This document shows positions 13,068-58,222 of a DNA stretch of 64,000 nucleotides, one piece after another. The notes beneath the pieces are model-generated. The model saw only the letters and a program-made list of their open reading frames with translations. It was not told where the DNA came from and searched no databases. The stretch's first letter is position 1, and every line of letters begins with the position of its first letter. A program made the position numbers and the translations under genes. Origin of the DNA: an uncultured bacterium (GTDB lineage: Bacteria > Bacteroidota > Rhodothermia > Balneolales > DATFMH01); the NCBI GenBank assembly GCA_963787205.1, contig CAWBCD010000021.1, forward strand, positions 92,714 through 156,713. Direction: 5' to 3'.

Positions 13068-14216
13068 TTAATCTGGTATGGTTACTTTAAGTACCTCACC
13101 CGCTCCGTCCGGGGCGCCAAAACCAAGAGCCGATACATAGATGTTCCCATCGGGACCAAATGTCATTCCGGTGGGAAGATTGAGTCCGTCGGCAATGACC
13201 ACTCTTTTACCCGAATTATCTAAGCGTATAATTTTACCAGAATTCGGAATAGGGCCCGGACTGCTCATGGAGGTGTTCTCCAGTACATAGATACGCCGAT
13301 GCTGGTCAATCAGGATTCCAAGAATTGTGGTAAACCCGCTGGCCCAGACTTTTATTTGTCCGCTAGGGGTTACCTTGAAAATGTTGGAGCTTCCCTCGAC
13401 AATCGGAAACGTGTCAAGATTTCCCAAAAAGAAATTTCCATTGTAGGCTACAACAGTAGGGACAATGTGTCCCTGCGTCGCCGACACATCGATAACCCGG
13501 TTAATTTGACCTGAAGTGGTGACACGCACCATCTCTCCATGATTGGGTTCGACAGCATAAAGGTTATCTTTCACATTGATCATGCCGTACCACGTTCCAT
13601 CGGGTTCAAAATCTTCTTCTTCAGGATGAGCGACCGGATGTGACTGCTGCCAGACACTGAGATTGGCAATCATAGTCCACGACATGTCCGGGTTGATTCG
13701 AATAATTCCATTTGGGATTGATTCAACGCCGTGAGAGCACCCCGCTCCAGCGAGAAGCGCATAGAGCGTATGATTGATGAATGCTACATCGGCCACCCCC
13801 ATTTTCAGACCCCCTGTTACTGGGGATGTTTGGCTTGATGGCAGGTTATCAACATAAGTCGTCCTTTGTCCTGATGGACTGATTCTTGAAATCCTGCTTC
13901 CATTAATACTTCCCTTGTATGGACCTATGGGGGGAATGACTTGGTCACAAGCATTAGTTGTGGAATCAGTACCGCCTATTCCTGCCTCAGCTACATATAA
14001 ATAGCCATCTGGTCCGAATTTGAGTCCGCGAGGATTATTTAACCCTGTCGCAAAGACTGTGACAGGGCCCATATTTGGTACTTCAGGACTGCTCTTATGC
14101 ACAGATAGTGGTTCCGATACCGTATTGTCCTGAGGTTTGGTGAGATCGTTTTTACAGGAGATTAGCAGAAACAGTAATCCGGTTAATAGGACGAAGACGC
14201 TTGATACACGTTTCAT
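13068..14216 (-). CDS. Beta-propeller lipoprotein (ScyD/ScyE-like / NHL-type repeats)
   Basis: 382 aa with lipobox LLISC and repeated motifs NPRGLKFGPDGYLYVAEAG and PTGMTFGPDGNIYV. Confidence 0.6.
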   Translation of the reverse strand: MKRVSSVFVLLTGLLFLLISCKNDLTKPQDNTVSEPLSVHKSSPEVPNMGPVTVFATGLNNPRGLKFGPDGYLYVAEAGIGGTDSTTNACDQVIPPIGPYKGSINGSRISRISPSGQRTTYVDNLPSSQTSPVTGGLKMGVADVAFINHTLYALLAGAGCSHGVESIPNGIIRINPDMSWTMIANLSVWQQSHPVAHPEEEDFEPDGTWYGMINVKDNLYAVEPNHGEMVRVTTSGQINRVIDVSATQGHIVPTVVAYNGNFFLGNLDTFPIVEGSSNIFKVTPSGQIKVWASGFTTILGILIDQHRRIYVLENTSMSSPGPIPNSGKIIRLDNSGKRVVIADGLNLPTGMTFGPDGNIYVSALGFGAPDGAGEVLKVTIPD

Positions 14217-15201
14217 AAAGGCCTCCTTAATTAATAAACAGTAAGAGAGAATAGAAAAAAAGGATAATGCTATACCAGCCAGGAAAGGACCTGGTCGGCA
14301 ATAGTTAAATCACCTAAGATGTTATGATGTCCCTCAACAAATCGCTTTGGTGATTAATCAACACGCGGCAAGATTCATATGGTTCGCAGAATTGAATAAG
14401 TCTAGTGATGGTTTTACCTGGTTTGAAATCCTGCTTATCATGTTACTATATAACGATACGTAAATGTATAATAAATTAATAAATAACAACATTATAAATT
14501 GTTTATTCGCATCATTGAATGATGGCCGTTATGTCTGCCAATCACAAAGTCGTTACATGCAATATAGAAATCAGTATTACTTCGATTCGTTGGTGAAGCT
14601 ATAAGTGTATTTGTTGGGTAACATATCATCTCAGAAAGAAGAATAGAGGCAATGTATATCATGTGTATAGCCCTAATCAATTGTCAGAGAACAACTCATG
14701 CTCCTTTATGGTAAACAAAGCTATTTCTTGTGATATCTTGTTATTTATCGAATAAATAATTGTTTTATTTTTGTTTGAAATTATTTTTATGGAATATATA
14801 TGTTGAAAGTATCGTACATAATTAACAATTTTTTATTGTGTTTACTAATTTTATTTTATTCACATATATGTAATTTTAAATAAAAATTACAGCCTTATTG
14901 AGTGCTTTAATATTATGTTAATATTAATATTTATGGGGATTTATATTTATTCTTGGTAAGACCATTTGTAAAGGTAATCTTTAGATATATGCGTTGCTTA
15001 TTAAGTAAAAAAAAACGATATATTACTGTATTACCTGATCTTGTCTTTACTTCGTGATTTCTATCTTATTAGGCGGCTCTAAAATAAAATATTGAGGTTG
15101 TTTGTCGGTTGTTACTTCCTGATGTGTCGCGGTAAAATAAAGTATTATTAAATACATTTTTAAATTAAATCATAATACTTTCGTGTTAAATATTTATATC
15201 T
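14217..15201. other. About 1-kb strongly AT-rich non-coding island upstream of the ECF sigma gene
   Basis: No credible ORF. Long A/T runs. AT hairpin TGTAATTTT-aaata-AAAATTACA at 14869-14891. Composition is visibly different from the flanking genes. Confidence 0.7.
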
Positions 15202-15976: not shown

Positions 15977-17041
15977 ATGAGCAAAGAACGTAAGAATATT
16001 AATGACTTACTTAATGATGATTCTTTTATTCGCTGGGTAAATAAATCTGCCAGCGAGAAGGAGATATCATTTTGGGAAGCGTGGCTTGCATCGGATCCCG
16101 GGCATGAAAAAATCTTCTCAGCCGCACTAAAGTATTTAGGTTTTCCTTTCAAACAATTTGATATCCCGGACCGAGTTGTTCAGAGTCAGTTGCGTTCGTT
16201 GAATGCTAAAATTGACAACTACGAAGAGTCAAACTCAGCCAGAGTTCGGCCACTCGGGGACCAGATTCCGAAGAGAAAAACCCACTTCCTTAGGTATGCA
16301 TCCGCTGCTATTATTGCATTGACTATTGGAGTAATAACTATTGTTTACAACAACCAGCCTGTTCAGAAAGCGAGACAGGTTGCATATGGCAGCATTCATG
16401 TCCCATTTGGAAAGCACGAGCTGATCAGGCTTGCTGACGGATCAGAAATCATACTGAATGCCAACTCTGATCTTCGATATCCGATCAAAACAAGTAAAAA
16501 TCAATCTCTGGACATCTGGTTAAGCGGGGAAGCCTATTTTTCCGTAGTTCACAATCCCAATGGTGCCCACAGGATATTCCGGGTTCACACGGATGATGGG
16601 GTTATCAGGGATATCGGTACTCAGTTTGATGTCAGTACCCGAAATAATACAACAAGAGTGGTATTGGTCGAGGGTGAAGTGGAGCTTAAACCATCTCAGA
16701 CGAACAACGCCAATCCAGGGTATGTGAAAATGAAACCTGGTGAGATGGCAAGTTTCAGTATGGTGGATCCGACAGTAAACCTGATTCAGGTAAATACGGA
16801 AGTCTACACATCCTGGATTCACAATAAGCTTGTCTTTGACAATACCCCCCTGGATGAAGCCATTCAATCTATTGAAAATTATTACGGAGTAAAGATCGAG
16901 GTGACCAGCCGGGATGTCTTGAAACAACGGATCTCGGGTACAATCAGAAATACGGATTTAGCAACTGTATTAAAAGGACTTAGCAATATTTTGGACCTGA
17001 AAATTGAACACAAAGATAACATCATACTCTTGAATAAATGA
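15977..17041 (+). CDS. FecR-family anti-sigma factor
   Basis: 354 aa with a central TM segment (AAIIALTIGVITIV) and a FecR-like periplasmic domain. It sits between the sigma and SusC genes. Confidence 0.85.
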   Translation: MSKERKNINDLLNDDSFIRWVNKSASEKEISFWEAWLASDPGHEKIFSAALKYLGFPFKQFDIPDRVVQSQLRSLNAKIDNYEESNSARVRPLGDQIPKRKTHFLRYASAAIIALTIGVITIVYNNQPVQKARQVAYGSIHVPFGKHELIRLADGSEIILNANSDLRYPIKTSKNQSLDIWLSGEAYFSVVHNPNGAHRIFRVHTDDGVIRDIGTQFDVSTRNNTTRVVLVEGEVELKPSQTNNANPGYVKMKPGEMASFSMVDPTVNLIQVNTEVYTSWIHNKLVFDNTPLDEAIQSIENYYGVKIEVTSRDVLKQRISGTIRNTDLATVLKGLSNILDLKIEHKDNIILLNK

Positions 17042-17055
17042 TAATAGGAGTCAAC

Positions 17056-20000
17056 ATGAAAAAAAGGATACGATCCTTTCTTTTACTACTAACCATTTTG
17101 GGTTTTACCTCATGTTTGTATTCGGCAAAAGCACAGGCATATACCAATGAACAAAAGCTTTTGTCGGACAATAGTTCAGGAATAATAAGTTTGAAAAATG
17201 TCCTGAAAACGATTGAGCAAAAATATGATGTGACATTTCTGTACAAAACCGACTTGGTAACCGACAAATATGTTTCGCAGTCGAAAGCGCTTTCGACTGA
17301 TTTGTTTCAGTTACTGTATGCCACACTCAGAGACAATAACCTTCGCCTGAAGCGAATGGGGAAAACGTTGTATGTGATTCTGCCGGCCGAAGACATTAAA
17401 AAGCCGGGTAAGACCGAGATTAAGGAGTTTCCCGTTCATGGAAAAGTAACCGATGCAAAGACGGGAGAGGCTTTACCCGGAGTTAATATTATGCTAAAGG
17501 GTACGGAAAAAAAGAATATTATCGGTACTACAACAGATGGAAATGGTAATTACGCATTGAAAGTACCCGATTCTCAGGGGATATTACTGTTCTCATACAT
17601 CGGGTATAAAACGGCTGTTATACACATTAATGGTCACGAAGTGATCAATGTTGGTCTGCAGGATACGACTATCGGAGGGAAGGAAGTTGTCGTGACGGCT
17701 CTTGGCATTAAACGACATGAGAGATCTCTCGGATATTCTGTTCAAACTGTGAAGGGCAGTTCACTGCAAAAGGTTCAGGGGGTGGATGTTGAAACCTCGT
17801 TAACCGGAAAAGTCGCAGGCCTTTTGGTTGAAAATGGTACCGGATTTACTGATGAACCGACGATCACACTACGTGGGGAAACACCTTTATTGGTCATCGA
17901 CGGAGTACCTTATACCAATCTGACCTTAAGAGATGTACCCGCTGACAATATCAAGAATATCAGTGTTCTGAAGGGTGCAACTGCCTCTGCGTTGTATGGA
18001 GACCGGGGCGCAAGTGGTGCTATTATGGTGACCACCAAAAACGGCAGCGGTGCAAAGAAGGGCTTGACGGTATCCTATAATGCCAACACAATGTTTAATG
18101 CCGGATTTTTGGCCATTCCCAAAGTGCAATCGACTTATGGGCGGAAAGTTAATACGGCGACAAATACGTATGCACGTACAGCCGACGGGTCCTGGGGGGT
18201 TCCAATGGATGGAAGACAGGTCATTCAGTGGGATCCAATTTCTAAATCTTTAAAATCAATGCCGTACCTGCCAATAGGCAAGAATAATTTTAAGAATTTT
18301 TTACAGCCAGGTTACATAATGAATAATAACCTGAGCGTGACCGAAAATGGCGATTTAGGGAGTCTTCGTGCCGCAGCATCGTGGCTGCAAAATAAGGGGC
18401 AATATCCTAACTCGATGTTTAACAAGATCACTTATAATCTGGCTGGAGAAATGCAGAAGAATCAGTTTTCTTTATCCTCCAGCCTTTCCTTTACCCATCA
18501 GTACACTCCTAATATGGGATTCAGAGGATATACAGGTTATAATCCAATGTACAGCATGCTCATCTGGGGGTCTCCCGATTATAATGTTCTCCAATACAAA
18601 AATTACTGGCTCGTGCCCAACGAATCTCAAAATGACAGTTATACCTCTGCAGTGAATAATCCCTATTTCAATGCCTATCAAAGAACACATAGCGAAAGCC
18701 GGGACGTATTCAATGGAAGTCTTGCTTTAAAATATGATATCAGGCCTTGGCTTAAAGCGACATATCGCGTGGGCTTTGATACCTATAATGACAAGCAGGA
18801 AATAACGATTTCGGAGGGTTCGCTGGTAAGTGCTGGTTCCGCCACTGTATTGTTAAATGGATCACAGGTGTGGGGCGAGTCCAAAAAAGGATCTTATAAC
18901 ATGGGTCTCGGCAGAGGCTACGGCGTGAATAACGACCTGTTATTATCCGGCGAAAAAACCATAAAAGACTTTAAAGTGAGCGGTTTTGTCGGCGGTACAA
19001 TTTATTATAAGCAAGATGAAGGTATGGAAGCCCTGACAAGAAGCGGCCTTTCGATTCCGGGATTTTACTCTCTCGCGTCGTCGATAAATCCCGTCAAGGT
19101 TGATTCAAGAATATACAGGCAACAAGTAAACAGTTTGTACGGGCAATTGGCATTGTCATGGAGAAATTTAGTGTATGCCGATGGTACCCTTCGGAACGAT
19201 TGGAGTTCCACAATGCCGGCTTCTAACAGCTCATATATGTATCCATCCGCCTCGTTGAGTTTTGTTGCTTCTCAATTGTTGCCCAAGATGGATTGGCTTT
19301 CATTTTGGAAGCTGAGAGCTTCATGGGCTTCATCGAAAACCCCACCTTCCATTTACGAGGTTAATTCGGTGTATAATATTGATAACAATGCCTGGGGTAA
19401 TTTAAACTCGGCTTCTTATCCCACAACAATTCGGGGAAATAATGTCTTGCCTCAGGCTTCCTCAACGTTAGAATTAGGAACAGCTTTCGATGTTTTTCAA
19501 AACAGGGCTTCGCTGGATGTGGCCGTCTACAAGAAGAGAATGTATGACTTTTTGGTTGCAACAGGTGTTGATCCTGCTTCCGGCTTTTACAGTAATTATG
19601 TGAATACCCAAGAAGAAACTGCACGGAAAGGTGTTGAAATTACAGCCAATGTTACCCCGGTAAGGACTTCAGACTGGCAATGGGACCTGTCGTTGAACTG
19701 GTCGGCATATGCAGAATTCTATACGAAATTGGACTCTGTTTACTCACCGGACAACTCATGGGTGAAAGTTGGAGCAAGAACAGATGCGCTCGTTTTGCAT
19801 GATTTTCTGAGGGATCCTCAGGGGAATATCATTTTCAGCAATGGCTTACCTCAATTTTCCCATTACCTGTCAAAATACGGCAATACGAATCCCGACTGGA
19901 TTTGGGGCGCCAGCACAACGGTTAGCCATAAGAGCTGGACGTTTAGTATCTCCTTTGACGGACGTGTTGGCGGGTTGATACCATCCACTACGGCAATGTA

Positions 20001-20481
20001 CATGTGGATTTCCGGTGCAATGCCAGCCTCAGTTACCCAGGCCCGTTATTTGGACGTAACAAATCCCGGTTCGGCCAATTATGTTGGGAAAGGCGTCAAA
20101 GTTATATCAGGAACGGTCACATACGACACCTATGGCAATATTACGAGTGATACGCGCAAATATGCACCCAATGATGTTGCGGTAACGTACGAGCGATATA
20201 TCAAGGCATTGCATAAAGGAACAGCCTGGGGTGGCTCACCTTCGCCGGTCGATGTCTATAATGCTACGTTTTTTAAGATTAGGGAGATATCGATCACCTA
20301 TAACCTGCCTAAATCTTTATATGGAAAGTTGAATATCAGCGGTGCATCAATTTCTGCAATTGGTCAGAATGTATTCCTGTGGGCGAAACAGTTTAAATAC
20401 TCCGATCCGGACGGGGGTCACGAAAACTTTAGCGCCCCTTCGCAACGCTATCTTGGTTTCAATCTGAAGCTTGATTTCTGA
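17056..20481 (+). CDS. SusC/RagA-family TonB-dependent outer-membrane transducer with N-terminal signalling (STN-like) extension
   Basis: ORF 17038-20481. The likely start is ATG 17056 (MKKRIRSF), preceded by AGGAG. It contains the carboxypeptidase-regulatory-like VHGKVTDAKTGEALPGVNIMLKG, plug and barrel domains, and a terminal F. Confidence 0.9.
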   Translation: MKKRIRSFLLLLTILGFTSCLYSAKAQAYTNEQKLLSDNSSGIISLKNVLKTIEQKYDVTFLYKTDLVTDKYVSQSKALSTDLFQLLYATLRDNNLRLKRMGKTLYVILPAEDIKKPGKTEIKEFPVHGKVTDAKTGEALPGVNIMLKGTEKKNIIGTTTDGNGNYALKVPDSQGILLFSYIGYKTAVIHINGHEVINVGLQDTTIGGKEVVVTALGIKRHERSLGYSVQTVKGSSLQKVQGVDVETSLTGKVAGLLVENGTGFTDEPTITLRGETPLLVIDGVPYTNLTLRDVPADNIKNISVLKGATASALYGDRGASGAIMVTTKNGSGAKKGLTVSYNANTMFNAGFLAIPKVQSTYGRKVNTATNTYARTADGSWGVPMDGRQVIQWDPISKSLKSMPYLPIGKNNFKNFLQPGYIMNNNLSVTENGDLGSLRAAASWLQNKGQYPNSMFNKITYNLAGEMQKNQFSLSSSLSFTHQYTPNMGFRGYTGYNPMYSMLIWGSPDYNVLQYKNYWLVPNESQNDSYTSAVNNPYFNAYQRTHSESRDVFNGSLALKYDIRPWLKATYRVGFDTYNDKQEITISEGSLVSAGSATVLLNGSQVWGESKKGSYNMGLGRGYGVNNDLLLSGEKTIKDFKVSGFVGGTIYYKQDEGMEALTRSGLSIPGFYSLASSINPVKVDSRIYRQQVNSLYGQLALSWRNLVYADGTLRNDWSSTMPASNSSYMYPSASLSFVASQLLPKMDWLSFWKLRASWASSKTPPSIYEVNSVYNIDNNAWGNLNSASYPTTIRGNNVLPQASSTLELGTAFDVFQNRASLDVAVYKKRMYDFLVATGVDPASGFYSNYVNTQEETARKGVEITANVTPVRTSDWQWDLSLNWSAYAEFYTKLDSVYSPDNSWVKVGARTDALVLHDFLRDPQGNIIFSNGLPQFSHYLSKYGNTNPDWIWGASTTVSHKSWTFSISFDGRVGGLIPSTTAMYMWISGAMPASVTQARYLDVTNPGSANYVGKGVKVISGTVTYDTYGNITSDTRKYAPNDVAVTYERYIKALHKGTAWGGSPSPVDVYNATFFKIREISITYNLPKSLYGKLNISGASISAIGQNVFLWAKQFKYSDPDGGHENFSAPSQRYLGFNLKLDF

Positions 20482-20575
20482 GATTGAAATACCAAATGTC
20501 AAATTTATTTTATATAAGATTTTGTTTTAAATATGGTTATGAAGGAACTGGAATATGTTAAAAAATAACTCAAAC

Positions 20576-52144: not shown

Positions 52145-53401
52145 TTAATCTACATTCATTCCAATTAGTCTCCAAAACTCCGGTTCGGCCAGGATTTTTA
52201 AACCATATTCCCGGGCCTTTTTGGCTTTACCAGACATGGTATTAGGGTTTGAAGCAACGAGATAATCTAATTTCTTCGATACGCTCTTTTTGATAATCAT
52301 GCCATGTTGTTGGGCTACCTTCTGAGCCAATGATCTCTCTACAATCTTTCCATTAATTCTGGATTGAAGTTGTCCCGTAAAACAAATTGATTTTCCTTCG
52401 ACCATATTATTGAAATGGAATTTATTGTTTGAAACAATTTCACCCGTCCTTGCGGTTGCAATAAGAGTTCCAATTTCGGATTGTTTAAGACCGAGTAATT
52501 GAGTTAAATCCTTAAGATCTTTCATTTCGAATTCAGAAATTTTACCGTCCAAGAGATAGACCTTAATTACTTCAGTTAAATACTGTTTATGTAATTCGAC
52601 AATTTGATCTCTTGATAGTCGGAACTCTTCAACCAATTCTTCAAGCTTAATTAATTCAGTGCGGGTAATAATCCGATCCGCCAGAATTTCAATAAGAGTG
52701 TCCAGATATTGTTTCGAGTTTTCGTCCCCGGTAATCGAATCAGTCGGTAGCCTTTTAATGAAATCCTGAAGTTTGGTTTTCTCTTTTTGGGATTCATTAA
52801 ACGCCTCACTTCTCCTGTATTCAATTCTCTTCTGAGGTCTTATCCTTTGGGTTTTGAATGAAACAGGGTTTACATATTGTTGTTCAAAATTTCTGACTCC
52901 GAAATGACTTAAAAATTCATTCTTTAATTTTATAAATAATTTTGTCGTAGCCAGAGCATCAGATAGGGCCTCATGGGAATTATTTGTTTCTATATCGTAA
53001 TACTCGCATAAAACATCAAGTCTTCTGCCTGAAAGACTTGTGTCAACCGTTCTGGAAAGTTTAATAGTACAAATTCCATCCAATTTTCTCTCCTGATCTA
53101 CAAGTTCGTTCTCAAGAAATCTCAGATCAAAAGATGCATTATGCGCAACGAGGGTTGAACCATTCAAAAATGATTTTACAAAATGTTTTACCTCCTTAAA
53201 TGGAGGTGCATGTTTAACAAGTCCCGGTTCAATTCCATGAACATAATAGTTTGATATATCACGTTCAGGGTTTATCAGCGTACTATACCGATCAATTATT
53301 TTATCATTTTCATCGATCTTGACGATGCCGATCTCTATTATTTTATCTCCTCTGAGCGGGGAAAATCCGGTCGTCTCCAGATCAAAAATACTGAACATCA
53401 T
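52145..53401 (-). CDS. DEDDh (DnaQ-like) 3'-5' exonuclease fused to a helical middle region and a C-terminal BRCT domain
   Basis: 418 aa. Exo motifs FDLETTG, AHNASFD and HEALSDA. The C-terminus GKSICFTGQL...LDYLVASNPNTMSGKAKKAREYGLKILAEPEFW is BRCT-like. Confidence 0.8.
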   Translation of the reverse strand: MMFSIFDLETTGFSPLRGDKIIEIGIVKIDENDKIIDRYSTLINPERDISNYYVHGIEPGLVKHAPPFKEVKHFVKSFLNGSTLVAHNASFDLRFLENELVDQERKLDGICTIKLSRTVDTSLSGRRLDVLCEYYDIETNNSHEALSDALATTKLFIKLKNEFLSHFGVRNFEQQYVNPVSFKTQRIRPQKRIEYRRSEAFNESQKEKTKLQDFIKRLPTDSITGDENSKQYLDTLIEILADRIITRTELIKLEELVEEFRLSRDQIVELHKQYLTEVIKVYLLDGKISEFEMKDLKDLTQLLGLKQSEIGTLIATARTGEIVSNNKFHFNNMVEGKSICFTGQLQSRINGKIVERSLAQKVAQQHGMIIKKSVSKKLDYLVASNPNTMSGKAKKAREYGLKILAEPEFWRLIGMNVD

Positions 53402-53772
53402 TTTTCTTGTGAATCACTAAATCCTTCCGAATTATTAATAAAATTGACTTTCGTCTCCGTCTTCGAACAGATAAGTATGCATTCTTTAGATAAATCAATA
53501 TCCAAATCTTCTCCTCTTAAACCTTGCCATTGTGCTAGGTATTGAAATGTGCCGATTTTATTTGCAATCTTTTTAGTGACTCCGCCTTTCCATCCCAAAA
53601 CAGGAAGTTCACCTTTCTTCGCACGTTCTGCCAACCCCGGTTCAGACTCACTTAATTTTCGCCCAACCTCCCAGCAGGTGATCAATCCCTTATCAGGACC
53701 TCTCCATCGTTCAGCGAATGTCAAATGTTCTCTAATAGGTTCGCGAATAGATCTGTAGATATGTTCCCTCAT
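53398..53772 (-). CDS. Hypothetical 124-aa protein translationally coupled to the exonuclease-BRCT gene
   Basis: ATGA stop/start overlap with the downstream gene. No recognisable motif. Confidence 0.55.
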   Translation of the reverse strand: MREHIYRSIREPIREHLTFAERWRGPDKGLITCWEVGRKLSESEPGLAERAKKGELPVLGWKGGVTKKIANKIGTFQYLAQWQGLRGEDLDIDLSKECILICSKTETKVNFINNSEGFSDSQEK

Positions 53773-54659: not shown

Positions 54660-55262
54660 TTATTTTTTAGCGCAGTCGGCACATACCTTTTTATCACCTT
54701 TAATGCGTCCGTATTCCATAACGGTCATTTCGCCGCACTCCTCGCAGACAAAACTGTTAAAGCTGTGAGGCACTTCCTGATAGTTGTAGTCGAACACGTC
54801 CGATATATTCAACAGTTGGTCTTCTGTCGTGCTCATCACTTTGGTTACGAGCGGGTTAATAACATCATCCGGTACCTGGCCGGCCAGGATGCCTTTCTCA
54901 CGGTATTTCTTGAAGAAATCGGTCTGTTTGTTAGCCAGCATTATTTCGGCTTTGGGAGTCACACGGACGGCTTTGTTCCTCTTCTTATCGATGAGAGTTA
55001 CGGCCCATTTACCCTTTTGGGTTTTGCGGATATTTCCCTTGCCGAAGGTAGTCCCCCTTATCACCTGCAGACCATCAGCATAGCAGGTTGCACAGTGATG
55101 ATCCCCAATATCGACAATGGCCACCAGTTGTCCGTCTCCGGCTCGTTCGACACCGAGTTTATTCATAGCCGCAGCGCCTGCCCGTAAACCTAAAGGCATG
55201 GCAGGACATTTATGACCGTGAAATTTTTGGCCGAATTCCAGCCAATCCTGTGGATTAACCAT
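54660..55262 (-). CDS. FmdE-domain protein with C-terminal zinc ribbon (copy 2)
   Basis: The track ORF extends to 55355. ATG 55262 (MVNPQDW) follows GGAGGA. FHGHKCPAMPLGLRAG is the FmdE N-terminal motif. C-terminal CEECGE...CADC. Confidence 0.8.
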   Translation of the reverse strand: MVNPQDWLEFGQKFHGHKCPAMPLGLRAGAAAMNKLGVERAGDGQLVAIVDIGDHHCATCYADGLQVIRGTTFGKGNIRKTQKGKWAVTLIDKKRNKAVRVTPKAEIMLANKQTDFFKKYREKGILAGQVPDDVINPLVTKVMSTTEDQLLNISDVFDYNYQEVPHSFNSFVCEECGEMTVMEYGRIKGDKKVCADCAKK

Positions 55263-55275
55263 TTTGTTCCTCCTG

Positions 55276-56319
55276 TTATTGATTAAAAAAATATTGGATT
55301 TGTACTGTTGTAAGTGAATACGTTTTATGAGTTGTAAACTGAAATTTATCATCAAAAGAAAATTTGATATCGCTTCCTTTCAGCTTGTAGGAATATCCTA
55401 TCGTATACCACGGATCATCGATGGTTGATGGATTTAAATCGTGCAATTGTTCAAGAGAAAGGATGATCAAATTCTTGGGCGTTATGCTATAATGAGTCAG
55501 GGTATAGTATCCCCAGGCTTTTCGTTTCTTCAGATATGCTTCTAAAATTTCCGTCTGAAATTCAAATTTTGATAGTTTTAACCTGGCATCGAAACCATAT
55601 CTGAAATCATCCCCGGAAAAGGTGTCGGTATTCCCAAAAATTTTGGAGAATTTTAGCTCATTATCATTGCGGTAGGCAACCGAGTACCCGATGCGGAAAT
55701 CGGTCGATTTATTTTTCAGGTTTATAAACCCGCGATTTATATAAAGGAAATTCTTTTTGTCAGATACCGAATTCGCGCCGTTCCCGTTAAACAGTCCAAT
55801 GCTGATTCCACCAAAAGGGAAATTATATATCACTTCGGCTCCGATATCCCGTCCCATCGTTTCGGCTGTAGGTAGCAGGGCATTTATCACATCAGCTCTT
55901 TCGGTCAGAGGGATAAGGTAATCCGGTTGCTTTCTCTGTAAGCTGAAATCAGGAACAAATTGGCCTGCGGTTATGGCAAATCTGTCTGCTTTGTAATCGA
56001 TGAAAACATCCTGAAGCTGGAACATAAAATTTTGTTTGTTACAGAAAATGGATTGTAATTTGAATCCCCACTTATCTGATCCGAATGGTAATTGTCCATC
56101 CATCCAAAGCTTGGCACGCCGGATGGAAAAGCCGGCCTGATCCGAATAATTATCCGAAAAGCGGTATTGAAGATACCCGTTCCAATTAACCTTTTGCTGA
56201 GCAAAGGAAACGGAACGTATGCCAAGCAAAAATGCAAAAACAAAAAGGGAAGAAAATAAAGCTCTGAAGTAACGCAGAGGGTCACGGAGATGATACCCAC
56301 AAATCATAAAACACCCCAT
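55276..56319 (-). CDS. Outer-membrane porin (O/P-type-like beta-barrel)
   Basis: 347 aa with a signal peptide ending SFAQQ, alternating strands and a terminal aromatic (YFFNQ). The exact start is uncertain. Confidence 0.6.
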   Translation of the reverse strand: MGCFMICGYHLRDPLRYFRALFSSLFVFAFLLGIRSVSFAQQKVNWNGYLQYRFSDNYSDQAGFSIRRAKLWMDGQLPFGSDKWGFKLQSIFCNKQNFMFQLQDVFIDYKADRFAITAGQFVPDFSLQRKQPDYLIPLTERADVINALLPTAETMGRDIGAEVIYNFPFGGISIGLFNGNGANSVSDKKNFLYINRGFINLKNKSTDFRIGYSVAYRNDNELKFSKIFGNTDTFSGDDFRYGFDARLKLSKFEFQTEILEAYLKKRKAWGYYTLTHYSITPKNLIILSLEQLHDLNPSTIDDPWYTIGYSYKLKGSDIKFSFDDKFQFTTHKTYSLTTVQIQYFFNQ

Positions 56320-57053
56320 ACCAACTTTACAGCTATTACAAACAGGACTACCGCAAAAACCTGTTTCACCCTGTTTGATTTTGCCCTGGTAACCATGAAA
56401 TTACTTCCCAGAAATGCCCCGATAACAACAGCAACGGTTAGCACTACTGTCAGGGTCCAGTTGAAATGGCCCTGGGCAACATGACCAAGAAATCCGGAAA
56501 ATGAAGAGAAGGTAACGGCAAGTGCCGAAGTGGCGGCTGCTTTTTTAGTTTCGTATCCCATCCACATCAGAAGAGGGGCCATAATAAACCCTCCGCCTAT
56601 ACCCAGGAGGCCGGCTACAAAACCTGCGAAACTGCCTATGATTGCTCCTGTAATTACCTGTTTTTTAAATGGCATCATTTCTTTTGGCTCGGGCCGCCGC
56701 GACATGAGCAACATTCTGCCGGCGGCGACGAAAACAGCCATTGAGAAAAAGATCAAGAGTATATTTACCGGCAGCTTATCCGACACAAGCGCTCCGAGGG
56801 GAGCAAATACGAATGCAAAAATCGTCATCGCCAACCCGCCTTTGATGTCAACCAACTTATTCCTGAAATAGGCAATAAGAGCTATCAGGGTTGTAAAACC
56901 GTTCAGTAACAGAGCTAGCGGGATGGCTACCTCTTTAACTGAAAAACCTGCCCATTTGAGAACGGGCACGTAAATCAGAGCTCCGCCCAGGCCCAGCATC
57001 GAGAACAGGAAGGAGGCCGCAAGAATTATTATGGCTACGATCGTGTATAACAT
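56304..57053 (-). CDS. TauE/SafE (DUF81) family anion exporter-like membrane protein
   Basis: 249 aa with about 8 TM helices and the internal duplication typical of the 4-TM+4-TM TauE family (GLGGALIYVP / GIGGGFIMAP). Confidence 0.8.
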   Translation of the reverse strand: MLYTIVAIIILAASFLFSMLGLGGALIYVPVLKWAGFSVKEVAIPLALLLNGFTTLIALIAYFRNKLVDIKGGLAMTIFAFVFAPLGALVSDKLPVNILLIFFSMAVFVAAGRMLLMSRRPEPKEMMPFKKQVITGAIIGSFAGFVAGLLGIGGGFIMAPLLMWMGYETKKAAATSALAVTFSSFSGFLGHVAQGHFNWTLTVVLTVAVVIGAFLGSNFMVTRAKSNRVKQVFAVVLFVIAVKLVWGVL

Positions 57054-57061
57054 GTTACTCT

Positions 57062-57703
57062 CTACTTAATACCCGGCAGATGAATTACCGTCTCATCTGC
57101 TGTTCTTTCCGAACAAGAAATACAAACCTTCTTGCCATCCTTAACACGCAGGTATCTCTCGAACACATATTCCCCGCATACTTCACACTTTGCCTTGTTG
57201 AAAGAACCTTTAACCGGTGTGTACTTGAAATCGGGGAGAACCGTTACATTGAATAGTTCCTCATCCGTTGCGTCTAAGACGATATCAATAATATCTTTTC
57301 TGATTCCTTCGGGAATTTCACTCGGCTCTATTCCTTGTTTGCGGTATTTGAAGAATTCGTGGGGGGCAAGCCTATCCTGGAATTCATTTTTCAATGCAAT
57401 CCTTGCCGCATCTTTCTTTCCGGGATACCAAAAGATGGCTGCTACTTTGCCATAGTTTAATTTTTCGATCATTCCTTTGCCAAAAGTGGCACCGGTTGCC
57501 GACATAATGCCGTCTTGCATGCAACCTTGTGGATGGCCGATACCCATTTCTGAGAACACGTGCATCTCGTGATTATGACTTTTTTCAACGCCCAATCTTT
57601 CAAGTGCCAGCGTTCCCATCCGGTAGCCAATCGGCATAAAAGGGCATCGATGACCGTGAAATTCAAAGGTCCATTCCGGTAAATCGAATTTTGTTTTTTT
57701 CAT
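57062..57703 (-). CDS. FmdE-domain protein with C-terminal zinc ribbon (copy 1)
   Basis: 213 aa. FHGHRCPFMPIGYRMG. C-terminal CEVCGE...CISC. Confidence 0.8.
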   Translation of the reverse strand: MKKTKFDLPEWTFEFHGHRCPFMPIGYRMGTLALERLGVEKSHNHEMHVFSEMGIGHPQGCMQDGIMSATGATFGKGMIEKLNYGKVAAIFWYPGKKDAARIALKNEFQDRLAPHEFFKYRKQGIEPSEIPEGIRKDIIDIVLDATDEELFNVTVLPDFKYTPVKGSFNKAKCEVCGEYVFERYLRVKDGKKVCISCSERTADETVIHLPGIK

Positions 57704-57721: not shown

Positions 57722-57741
57722 TTAAGTAATCATTTACTTAC
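57722..57741. promoter_or_regulatory. Palindromic box copy 1 (tTAAGTAA-TCAT-TTACTTAC), 18 nt upstream of the FmdE start codon
   Basis: The 19-nt core TAAGTAATCATTTACTTAC is identical to the copies at 58870-58888 and 59230-59248. Confidence 0.6.
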
Positions 57742-57820: not shown

Positions 57821-58033
57821 TTAGTTTTTTTCAATATTTGTTTCTTGTCGAATATCATTCCATTCTTGTTCCAATGCGCACAATTCATCCAGTACATCAT
57901 ACTCATTCATCTTTTGGGTAAACCAGACGATATAGGAAACAAGAGTATCCTTATCAAAAGCCATCAGGTCGGTATGTTGACGGATTTCCTTCCGGATGGT
58001 TTTCCAATCTAAATTAAGAACGGAGTTTTTCAT
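57821..58033 (-). CDS. Hypothetical 70-aa protein
   Basis: Small acidic ORF between a beta-barrel gene and box copy 1. Confidence 0.4.
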   Translation of the reverse strand: MKNSVLNLDWKTIRKEIRQHTDLMAFDKDTLVSYIVWFTQKMNEYDVLDELCALEQEWNDIRQETNIEKN

Positions 58034-58222
58034 TTTGTTCCTCCTTCCAGGCTCTTATAATCGAATATGGAGAATAAGAGCAATGATGATTATTATTAGT
58101 ACCAACTTATTGATTTGTTGAATTTTTGCATGTAAACCTTCTGAAAGTCCATTGGGGAAAAGGAGTTGGTGACTCGATCACCAACTCCTTTTCGATTGTT
58201 AGCAGCTCCTGCCTTTCCGGGC

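Follow-up and report, generated by a model that had tools for sequence, protein, structure and literature searches.

A conserved FmdE-TauE gene cassette with a dedicated porin and a putative TetR operator in an uncultured Balneolales bacterium

Introduction

What do two paralogous FmdE-domain proteins do in a bacterial gene cassette that also encodes an inner-membrane permease and an outer-membrane porin? The question is raised by a four-gene locus in a 64-kb window, meaning the whole stretch of 64,000 nucleotides analysed here, from contig CAWBCD010000021.1 of an uncultured bacterium of the order Balneolales. The genes are arranged in the order FmdE1, TauE, porin and FmdE2. Comparison of this locus with its relatives across species, metagenomes, archaea and plasmids reveals that the conserved core of the cassette is the FmdE-TauE pair, and that the porin is an add-on of double-membrane bacteria.

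The FmdE family takes its name from the formylmethanofuran dehydrogenase operons of methanogens, and three structures of the family (PF02663) have been solved (Axelrod et al., PMC2954224). In the crystals, zinc, or a mixture of zinc and nickel, is held by an HxHxC motif and a distal cysteine, the metal site sits in the long cleft of an intertwined dimer, and a treble-clef zinc finger is described (PMC2954224). Most PF02663 genes were reported to adjoin metal-ion transporter genes, and transcriptional regulation was suggested as a possible role (PMC2954224). The solved Fwd complex is without FmdE, and in Methanosaeta the domain is fused to a transcriptional regulator.

Results

The four-gene cassette

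All positions given here are those of the window, and all four cassette genes lie on its minus strand (Table 1). A sequence-only reading of this DNA had proposed four tightly packed genes with gaps or overlaps of 16 nt or less, and the list of open reading frames (ORFs) places all four exactly where that reading had put them. FmdE1 and TauE are separated by a gap of 8 nt; the TauE and porin genes overlap by 16 nt with a porin start at 56319 and by 4 nt (ATGA) with a start at the second ATG, at 56307; and the porin and FmdE2 are separated by a gap of 13 nt. The FmdE2 ORF spans 54660-55355, and its likely start is the ATG at 55262, which has an AGGAGG ahead of it. The 8-nt gap, together with the ATGA or 16-nt overlap, suggests translational coupling, and the four genes are probably co-transcribed.

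Profile hidden Markov model searches agree with the domains that had been assigned, namely two FmdE proteins, a TauE permease and a porin. The Pfam matches of all four proteins exceed the curated cut-offs, and NCBIfam profiles give nothing specific for the cassette proteins. The FHGH.CP motif and the CxxC...CxxC pattern attributed to the two FmdE paralogues are likewise present, the former as FHGHRCP and FHGHKCP. The four genes are under purifying selection, with dN/dS values of 0.04-0.34 relative to a metagenomic copy of the locus that is 93% identical to the window (L093), which is the reference for all dN/dS values given here. The genes located 3' of FmdE2 in the window are unrelated to the cassette.

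Conservation of synteny across species

A scan of one genome per GTDB species, with loci annotated using the window proteins, yielded 80 loci, and synteny was counted in the 60 of these that possess at least 3 kb of downstream flank. TauE adjoins FmdE1 in 48 of the 60 loci, the porin accompanies them in 37, and all four genes are present in 29. The Ignavibacteria, the Bacteroidales and related lineages include dozens of species that carry the cassette or its FmdE-TauE core. In the reverse census, a porin-seeded search of JGI metagenomes returned 25 loci; TauE lies directly upstream of the porin in all 23 that have upstream flank, and FmdE2 lies directly downstream of the porin in every locus with enough flank. 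Chance adjacency of two common families is rejected by the forward and reverse censuses and by the pairing across domains of life. The sequence-only reading had considered its idea refuted if synteny were not conserved in other genomes; the cassette or its core does recur in species and metagenome loci, and the core also in archaea, a Firmicute and proteobacterial plasmids.

The outer-membrane component of the cassette varies between species. Alginate_exp-type barrels take its place in approximately 10 species, and in two further loci (L006 and L044) the order is TetR, FmdE1, OEP, membrane-fusion protein, RND and TauE, under the same TetR and boxes as described below. The RND permease of these two loci is a true orthologue of the pump encoded in the window (2153 bits).

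One metagenomic contig (L116, JGI Ga0102944_1068769, positions 1-1289) carries the RND gene, a remnant of the 31 C-terminal amino acids of the porin, and then the ORF that is found downstream of FmdE2. The whole cassette has been lost from this contig, and it thus behaves as a dispensable island.

The FmdE-TauE pair in archaea, a Firmicute and plasmids

The FmdE-TauE pair extends well beyond the lineages that carry the porin. In the archaeon Thermoplasma acidophilum, a TauE gene directly adjoins the FmdE gene Ta1109, and the gene divergent from Ta1109 encodes an ArsR with an N-terminal cysteine and a CTC motif; the pair is also present in Acidiplasma. An acidophilic member of the Peptococcaceae, a Firmicute, carries FmdE-FmdE-TauE followed by ArsR-DUF169-TauE-DUF1634-Acr3. 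The archaeal and Firmicute pairs occur without a porin. A metagenomic bacterium carries the order NifX-TauE-DGC-FmdE-TauE-AlgE-like.

Plasmids form a further group of hosts. Plasmid pSCD of Sulfuricella denitrificans skB26 (L119) carries TolC-MFP-RND-Trx-CcdA-OsmC-TauE-FmdE and, further along, CDF-TolC-MFP-RND, where MFP is the membrane-fusion protein and Trx a thioredoxin. The same gene set surrounds the window cassette, and S. denitrificans is a betaproteobacterium that oxidises sulfur and has been cultured. Clinical Enterobacteriaceae carry the pair as well, on conjugative plasmids of the IncHI2A and IncP groups in Citrobacter, Klebsiella and Enterobacter; examples are p112298-catA of Citrobacter freundii (L118) and pWP5-W18-CRE-01_1 of Klebsiella aerogenes (L120). 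The plasmid FmdE is 38% identical to FmdE1, and the FmdE of the Citrobacter and Klebsiella island is recorded as WP_007372374.1. The plasmid island is rich in IS and Tn3 elements and holds two more TauE genes, a CoA-disulfide reductase-rhodanese fusion, ArsR/SmtB, Dps, NifX with DUF134, and DUF6691.

The FmdE proteins

FmdE1 and FmdE2 score 103.3 and 95.1 bits, respectively, against PF02663, for which the cut-off is 22.9, and are 35% identical in an alignment to one another. Both possess a His2Cys2 site formed by H16, H18, C20 and C61, and both possess a C-terminal Cys4 zinc finger of the form CxxC...CxxC, which in FmdE1 consists of C173, C176, C194 and C197. These eight metal-ligand positions are invariant in 76 FmdE1 and 35 FmdE2 orthologues, bar a few gapped or truncated sequences and a single H-to-Y substitution. 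FmdE1 sets itself apart from FmdE2 by the invariant residues M62, M67, H45 and M53 near the site, and FmdE2 has the canonical Q at the position of M67. The closest homologues of FmdE1 are 72-88% identical across Ignavibacteria and Bacteroidales, and dN/dS is 0.34 for FmdE1 and 0.21 for FmdE2.

FmdE1 matches PDB entry 2GVI, the structure of Thermoplasma Ta1109, with an E-value of 7e-58 over an alignment that extends to the zinc finger, and FmdE1 is the orthologue of that protein. The zinc ligands in 2GVI are H16, H18, C20 and C61, a further zinc is bound in the finger, and one homologue takes zinc and nickel (PMC2954224). In the same structure, the Cys61 sulfur has an unidentified ligand at a distance of 1.8 A (PMC2954224). 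FmdE1 and FmdE2 are each expected to form a dimer with a solvent-exposed His2Cys2 site and a Cys4 finger.

A role in methanogenesis, as a component of formylmethanofuran dehydrogenase, is rejected, since no fmd or fwd catalytic genes are present at any examined locus: subunits A, B, C and D were found neither in the window, nor among the 45 commonest neighbour families of the 80 loci, nor in the annotated loci examined.

TauE and the porin

TauE matches PF01925 with 162.6 bits (cut-off 32.6), residues 7-244 covering positions 2-237 of the 237 in the profile. It contains multiple hydrophobic segments and conserved LGLGG and GIGGGF motifs, has no cysteines and few histidines, and its homologues average approximately 0.1 cysteine per protein. 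Its dN/dS of 0.04 is at the lower end of the range for the cassette.

The porin matches PF07396 with 58.5 bits (cut-off 20.9), and its database homologues are named 'phosphate-selective porin'. An AlphaFold2 model (pLDDT 79.6, pTM 0.73) comprises a signal-peptide helix and 16 strands, with a helical constriction loop predicted at residues 123-152, between strands 5 and 6. Foldseek matches to the model are classical trimeric porins, among which OprP (2O4V) ranks fourth, and OprP and OprO (2O4V and 4RJX) are the most identical to it in sequence, at 15-16%. An alignment of 41 close homologues contains eight invariant arginines and three invariant lysines, counted as columns of the alignment. No solved relative of either TauE or the porin was detected by sequence search.

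A palindromic box and a TetR repressor

The sequence-only reading had noted a palindromic box at the head of the cassette. The box, TAAGTAA-N4-TTACTTA (TAAGTAATCATTTACTTA), is present in the window in three exact copies, where 0.23 matches are expected even with two mismatches allowed, and the invariant core common to the three copies is 19 nt long. Each copy stands shortly before a start codon. That reading had missed that the 113-aa ORF behind box 3 is the remnant of a TetR repressor gene, and that boxes 2 and 3 put this remnant and a small outer-membrane barrel gene in the same regulon as the cassette. The three boxes probably mark three transcription units. Box 3 occupies the autoregulatory position of relatives with an intact TetR.

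The palindrome (TAAGTAAATGATTACTTA) is a putative operator of a 196-aa TetR, given that it tracks the TetR gene across species. Of the 37 loci with a TetR gene, 31 have the box, versus 4 of the 43 without one (Fisher p = 5e-12; 80 species loci); 47 of 52 boxes lie within 80 nt of an end of a TetR gene, and 15 TetR genes have boxes on both sides. Independent metagenome loci repeat the association, and the box is also located upstream of FmdE1 in many species. In 28 of 73 related loci, the gene immediately 5' of FmdE1 is TetR. The full-length orthologues, one of which is encoded at L044 9357-9947, carry TetR_N and TetR_C_4 domains and conserve two cysteines and one histidine in the ligand domain, and solved relatives (SlmA, FadR and KstR2) give no clue to the ligand.

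In the window itself the repressor gene has decayed. The remnant has an internal deletion of approximately 93 aa and a degenerate helix-turn-helix, including the recognition helix, and yields no Pfam match; its dN/dS of 0.55 is relaxed compared with the cassette genes. No other TetR of the cassette type is encoded in the 64-kb window. A decayed repressor alongside three perfect boxes suggests either that a second, trans-acting copy is encoded elsewhere or that repression was lost very recently. Scans for sigma-70 promoters and terminators gave counts equal to those of shuffled controls, and no riboswitch, tRNA gene or Rfam family reached the gathering threshold anywhere in the 64-kb window.

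Gene neighbourhood of the cassette

Neighbouring genes were clustered over the 80 loci, and representatives were annotated with Pfam and NCBIfam. The commonest neighbours belong to arsenic, metal and thiol-stress functions: ArsR (42 loci), ArsE-type thioredoxin (35), DsbD_TM (31), Thioredoxin (28), ArsC (22), Acr3 (21, passing the equivalog cut-off), the ArsF family (21, also passing), ZitB-like CDF (18), ArsP_1 permeases (17 + 12), DUF169 (12), ArsM (11, passing the cut-off), RND (11), OsmC (10), NifX-like (8) and DGC (7). At least one of ArsC, Acr3 and ArsM lies within 10 kb in 25 of the 80 loci, and 62 carry a TetR or an ArsR. In two loci (L019 and L027) the cassette directly follows Acr3 and has neither TetR nor box. 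CDF genes often stand either immediately 3' of FmdE2 or in between it and TauE.

In six species, the gene directly upstream of FmdE1 encodes an ArsR with an ACCYSGD...YC motif, and the same subtype heads ArsE-ArsF-DsbD-permease operons. The FmdE1-adjoining ArsR also has a weak match to BigR, at 40.7 bits against a cut-off of 155.

A small gene of the NifX/NifB type (Nitro_FeMo-Co) is situated between TetR and FmdE1 in eight species (for example L017, L021, L029, L051 and L053), and its position is filled elsewhere by DGC, DUF169 or OsmC genes, all of which encode small proteins that are cysteine-rich or bind metal clusters.

Other features of the window

The sequence-only reading had placed the cassette downstream of an RND pump, a thioredoxin-fold protein and another beta-barrel; all three are encoded there, and a membrane-fusion protein is present as well (Table 1). 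The barrel gene is conserved in L001 and L093 and is a probable lineage-specific member of the regulon. The hairpin 3' of it was spotted by eye and then folded. A 70-aa ORF between the barrel gene and box 1 is kept in two independent metagenomic copies of the locus, L001 and L093 (dN/dS 0.37), and none of the other species examined yielded it. Orthologues of the thioredoxin-like protein adjoin FmdE1 in four loci (L022, L025, L031 and L037). Assignment of the RND pump to the heavy-metal type (CzcA/CusA) is rejected: the best solved relatives are MdtB, MexB and AcrB, transmembrane helix 4 (GLLADDAIVVIEN) has the DD of the AcrB type, and neither CusA nor CzcA is among the 60 PDB matches listed for the permease.

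Table 1. Coordinates of the cassette, its putative operators and adjacent features in the 64-kb window
Feature	Position	Strand	Description
FmdE1	57062-57703	-	213 aa; PF02663 1.4e-29 and zf-dskA_traR 2.4e-8
TauE/SafE (TSUP-family) inner-membrane permease	56304-57053	-	249 aa; PF01925 1.6e-47
OprO/OprP-family outer-membrane porin	55276-56319	-	347 aa, signal peptide; Porin_O_P 9e-16
FmdE2	54660-55262	-	200 aa from likely start; PF02663 4.6e-27 and zinc finger
Operator box 1 (putative)	57723-57740		Exact match; ~20 nt upstream of FmdE1 start
Operator box 2 (putative)	58870-58887		Exact match; upstream of 204-aa barrel gene
Operator box 3 (putative)	59230-59247		Exact match; upstream of TetR remnant
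TetR-repressor remnant	58877-59218	-	113 aa; alignment to 37 full-length 196-aa TetRs
204-aa outer-membrane beta-barrel protein	58223-58837	-	OMP_b-brl 7e-6, just below Pfam cut-off; box 2
Terminator-like hairpin after barrel gene	58158-58192	-	17-bp stem; -26.8 kcal/mol, z = -6.3
70-aa ORF	57821-58033	-	Between barrel gene and box 1; no family match
Cytosolic thioredoxin-like protein, CGGC motif	59308-59898	-	Thioredoxin_2 and Thioredoxin_7; 24 nt after RND gene
RND efflux permease, multidrug (MdtB/MexB/AcrB-like)	59923-63039	-	Best PDB matches MdtB and MexB
Membrane-fusion protein of RND pump	63036-64000	-	HlyD_3 and HlyD_D23; passes window edge, ORF to 63998

Two observations concern parts of the window away from the cassette. 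A non-coding, AT-rich stretch of approximately 1 kb (14200-15200; GC content ~0.32, compared with ~0.45 elsewhere) separates divergent genes and precedes a series of large ORFs on the plus strand (15977-22105). On the minus strand, 52145-53772 encodes a 418-aa RNase_T (DnaQ-like) exonuclease fused to a C-terminal BRCT domain, and this ORF overlaps by 4 nt an upstream ORF of 124 aa.

Discussion

The reading that we favour, while giving it only an even chance of being correct, is that the cassette encodes a repressor-controlled, stress-induced export route across the whole envelope. A TetR with conserved cysteines, or an ArsR-family protein in some species, would bind the palindrome and keep the genes off, and repression would lift once the cell accumulates a metal(loid) or sulfur species that reacts with thiols. 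FmdE1 and FmdE2, both cytosolic, would bind or sense this species and couple it to TauE, which would carry it to the periplasm, probably as a small anion or anionic complex; the arginine-rich porin would then let it exit, a step that may be taken elsewhere by an AlgE-like barrel or an RND/TolC pump. Three things favour export over import: the type of regulator, the presence of efflux systems next to the cassette, and the fact that efflux ducts can stand in for the porin. Movement of a small anion or metal(loid) species across both membranes was already proposed in the sequence-only reading, and the idea fits the cysteine-bearing TetR and ArsR regulators, the arsenic, CDF, RND and thiol-redox neighbours, the swappable porin and the zinc site of the orthologue; the transport itself is what we infer.

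The preferred substrate would be an arsenical or antimonial in the trivalent state, or a thio-anion that arises from such a compound, given the ArsR subtype and the placement of cassettes inside ars islands. Next in preference would be sulfite, thiosulfate or a persulfide-derived anion, which the TauE family and the plasmid islands favour, and after these zinc, cadmium, cobalt or nickel, which are favoured by the crystal-bound zinc and nickel and by the adjacency of CDF.

Several points weigh against this reading. No ArsR, ArsC, Acr3, ArsM, ArsP or CDF homologue is encoded in the 64-kb window, in which the TetR gene has moreover decayed, and the plasmid islands hold persulfide-type genes rather than ars genes. 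The cysteine-free TauE is unlike most As(III) carriers, and the literature on the TSUP family describes sulfonate and sulfite roles only, not metals. With four protein ligands, the FmdE site has the look of a structural site or of one for passing metal on, and not obviously of one that binds substrate. Porins of the OprP type are classically uptake channels. Finally, in the transcriptome of Acidiplasma YE-1 expression of the FmdE gene on Fe2+ exceeds that on sulfur, pyrite or arsenopyrite by a factor of 12-16, and a VIT1 gene and peroxiredoxin genes follow the same pattern. This expression argues against arsenic as a universal inducer, a candidate that is weakened accordingly.

One rival reading involves sulfur and no metals. 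In such a scheme TauE would export sulfite or thiosulfate made during sulfide or persulfide detoxification, the zinc-thiolate of FmdE would act on sulfane sulfur, and persulfides would be the signal for the regulators, as in the CstR and BigR operons. TauE belongs to a family of sulfite/sulfonate exporters; the Enterobacteriaceae plasmid pair sits with the CoA-disulfide reductase-rhodanese, ArsR/SmtB, two TauE and DUF6691; rhodanese, OsmC, CMD, DUF169, thioredoxin and DsbD are frequent neighbours; and both the weak BigR match of the FmdE1-adjoining ArsR and the ligand close to the Cys61 sulfur of 2GVI are compatible with such chemistry. Reactive-sulfur or sulfite handling alone is nevertheless rather unlikely, since neither persulfide dioxygenase nor sulfide:quinone reductase is present in the cassette or among its commonest neighbours, Acr3, ArsM and ArsF pass the NCBIfam cut-offs in many loci, and the expression of Acidiplasma FmdE drops on elemental sulfur. 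The CDF that is often in the operon right behind FmdE2 also speaks against it, and leads to divalent-metal homeostasis, in which FmdE proteins would act as chaperones or buffers for zinc, nickel, cobalt or cadmium that feed CDF and possibly TauE, and the porin would vent the metal or a counter-ion. We regard this as distinctly unlikely. It is true that the crystal His2Cys2 sites hold zinc, or zinc and nickel, that most PF02663 genes adjoin metal-ion transporters (PMC2954224), and that a ZitB-like CDF is present in 18 of the 80 loci, often directly behind FmdE2 or between TauE and FmdE2; the Sulfuricella island holds CDF and RND systems, and the Acidiplasma FmdE gene is high on Fe2+ alongside VIT1. 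However, TSUP permeases and OprP-type porins are anion systems, the window and most loci lack CDF, the RND pump does not belong to the Czc/Cus type, and the cysteine motifs of the regulators are typical of soft metal(loid)s and not of the His/Asp sites of zinc sensors.

The cassette might instead take up a beneficial anion (phosphate, sulfate, molybdate or tungstate) that outcompetes a toxic analogue such as arsenate, with FmdE as a PhoU-like regulator of the permease, comparable to pst in arsenic islands. The porin falls in the phosphate-selective OprO/P family, FmdE has historically been tied to molybdenum and tungsten enzymes, NifX-like genes for Mo-Fe cluster-binding proteins precede FmdE1 in eight loci, and phosphate-uptake genes are known in arsenic islands (PMC3834237). 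Such uptake is very unlikely in view of the de-repressible TetR/ArsR control, in place of regulators of the Pho, ModE or Cys type, the lack of a Moco or other riboswitch in the window, the exchange of the porin for secretion-type barrels and TolC/RND efflux ducts, and the archaeal and Firmicute pairs that have no porin at all. The least probable of these explanations, and one to which we give little credence, is that FmdE proteins are metal-sensing regulators whose DksA/TraR-type finger acts on RNA polymerase or DNA, so that the linkage to TauE would reflect a shared regulon only. The C-terminal finger does match zf-dskA_traR above the Pfam cut-off, transcriptional regulation was raised in the structure paper (PMC2954224), and the Methanosaeta fusion joins FmdE to a transcriptional regulator. 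Two paralogues that bracket a permease and a porin with translationally coupled junctions would, however, be rare for regulators, a dedicated TetR or ArsR is already there, and the 72-88% identity among the closest FmdE1 homologues suggests a constrained binding interface or chemistry.

A bolder form of the favoured export route is doubtful. FmdE-TauE may be an ancient two-part transporter distributed across prokaryotes, in which a TSUP channel could not work without a zinc-site FmdE homodimer or FmdE1/FmdE2 heterodimer that loads or gates it from the cytosol; double-membrane bacteria would have extended it by an anion porin, and it would now be spreading on clinical IncHI2 plasmids. If true, FmdE, an orphan since the 1990s, would gain its first function, and the pair would define a novel class of secondary exporter, coupled to a chaperone, for thiophilic metal(loid) or sulfur species.

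The consistent cross-domain pairing with TauE gives FmdE, whose structure has been known since 2010, a first functional partner that is concrete and testable. A paper from 2026, which reports stress-induced FmdE paralogues, still calls the function of FmdE undetermined; no publication naming both FmdE and TauE was found in the literature searched, in keeping with the earlier view that this is not a described system, and the pair is not mentioned in literature on transporters in arsenic operons. Since the cassette lies inside arsenic, metal and thiol-stress islands of Ignavibacteria and Bacteroidales that abound in anaerobic sediments and digesters, it may supply a part so far missing from the detoxification of metal(loid)s or sulfur in sulfidic habitats. 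The copies on conjugative plasmids of Citrobacter, Klebsiella and Enterobacter offer easy genetics and hint at selection in man-made environments, and the conserved 18-bp putative operator, with its cysteine-bearing TetR, could serve as a direct means of searching for the inducer.

Comparison with known systems

The FmdE/FwdE proteins of methanogen formylmethanofuran dehydrogenase operons and the solved members of the family (2GVI, 2GLZ and 3D00) share with the cassette proteins the same domain, the FHGHxC and cysteine site and the treble-clef finger. The cassette differs from the fmd and fwd operons in that the partner of FmdE is a TauE permease, with no catalytic genes in the loci examined. 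It resembles ars operons, with their ArsD metallochaperone and Acr3, ArsAB or ArsP exporters, in its ArsR-type control in several species, in its location inside ars islands, and in placing next to an exporter gene the gene for a small cytosolic protein that has cysteines and a thioredoxin-like fold. Unlike ars operons, it lacks ArsA, ArsB and ArsD, its exporter is a TSUP protein without cysteines, the FmdE site is His2Cys2 and not tri-thiolate, a dedicated porin is present, and the window is without ars genes.

A TauE-type exporter under the control of a thiol-modified repressor is found in the cst operon of Staphylococcus aureus (CstR) and the BigR operon of Xylella and Agrobacterium, both of which serve sulfide and persulfide detoxification. 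Rhodanese and CoA-disulfide reductase neighbours at some loci are shared with these operons, whereas the cassette has no persulfide dioxygenase or sulfide:quinone reductase, includes FmdE and a porin, and is regulated by TetR. An inner-membrane exporter is likewise combined with a separate outer-membrane route in two-step heavy-metal efflux, where CzcCBA or CusCFBA takes over from a CDF or P-type ATPase, and CDF and RND are frequent neighbours of the cassette; here, however, TauE serves the inner membrane, a passive porin or an RND of the multidrug type serves the outer one, and there is no periplasmic metallochaperone. The porin is similar to OprP and OprO of Pseudomonas, which are selective for phosphate and pyrophosphate, in its Pfam family, its model of a 16-stranded barrel and its many invariant arginines, and it differs in belonging to a TetR-box operon with TauE and FmdE and in having no Pst genes nearby. 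Set beside these systems, the cassette is a previously undescribed operon of the stress-inducible detoxification or efflux type, built from an orphan metalloprotein family, a permease of a poorly understood family and a dedicated porin.

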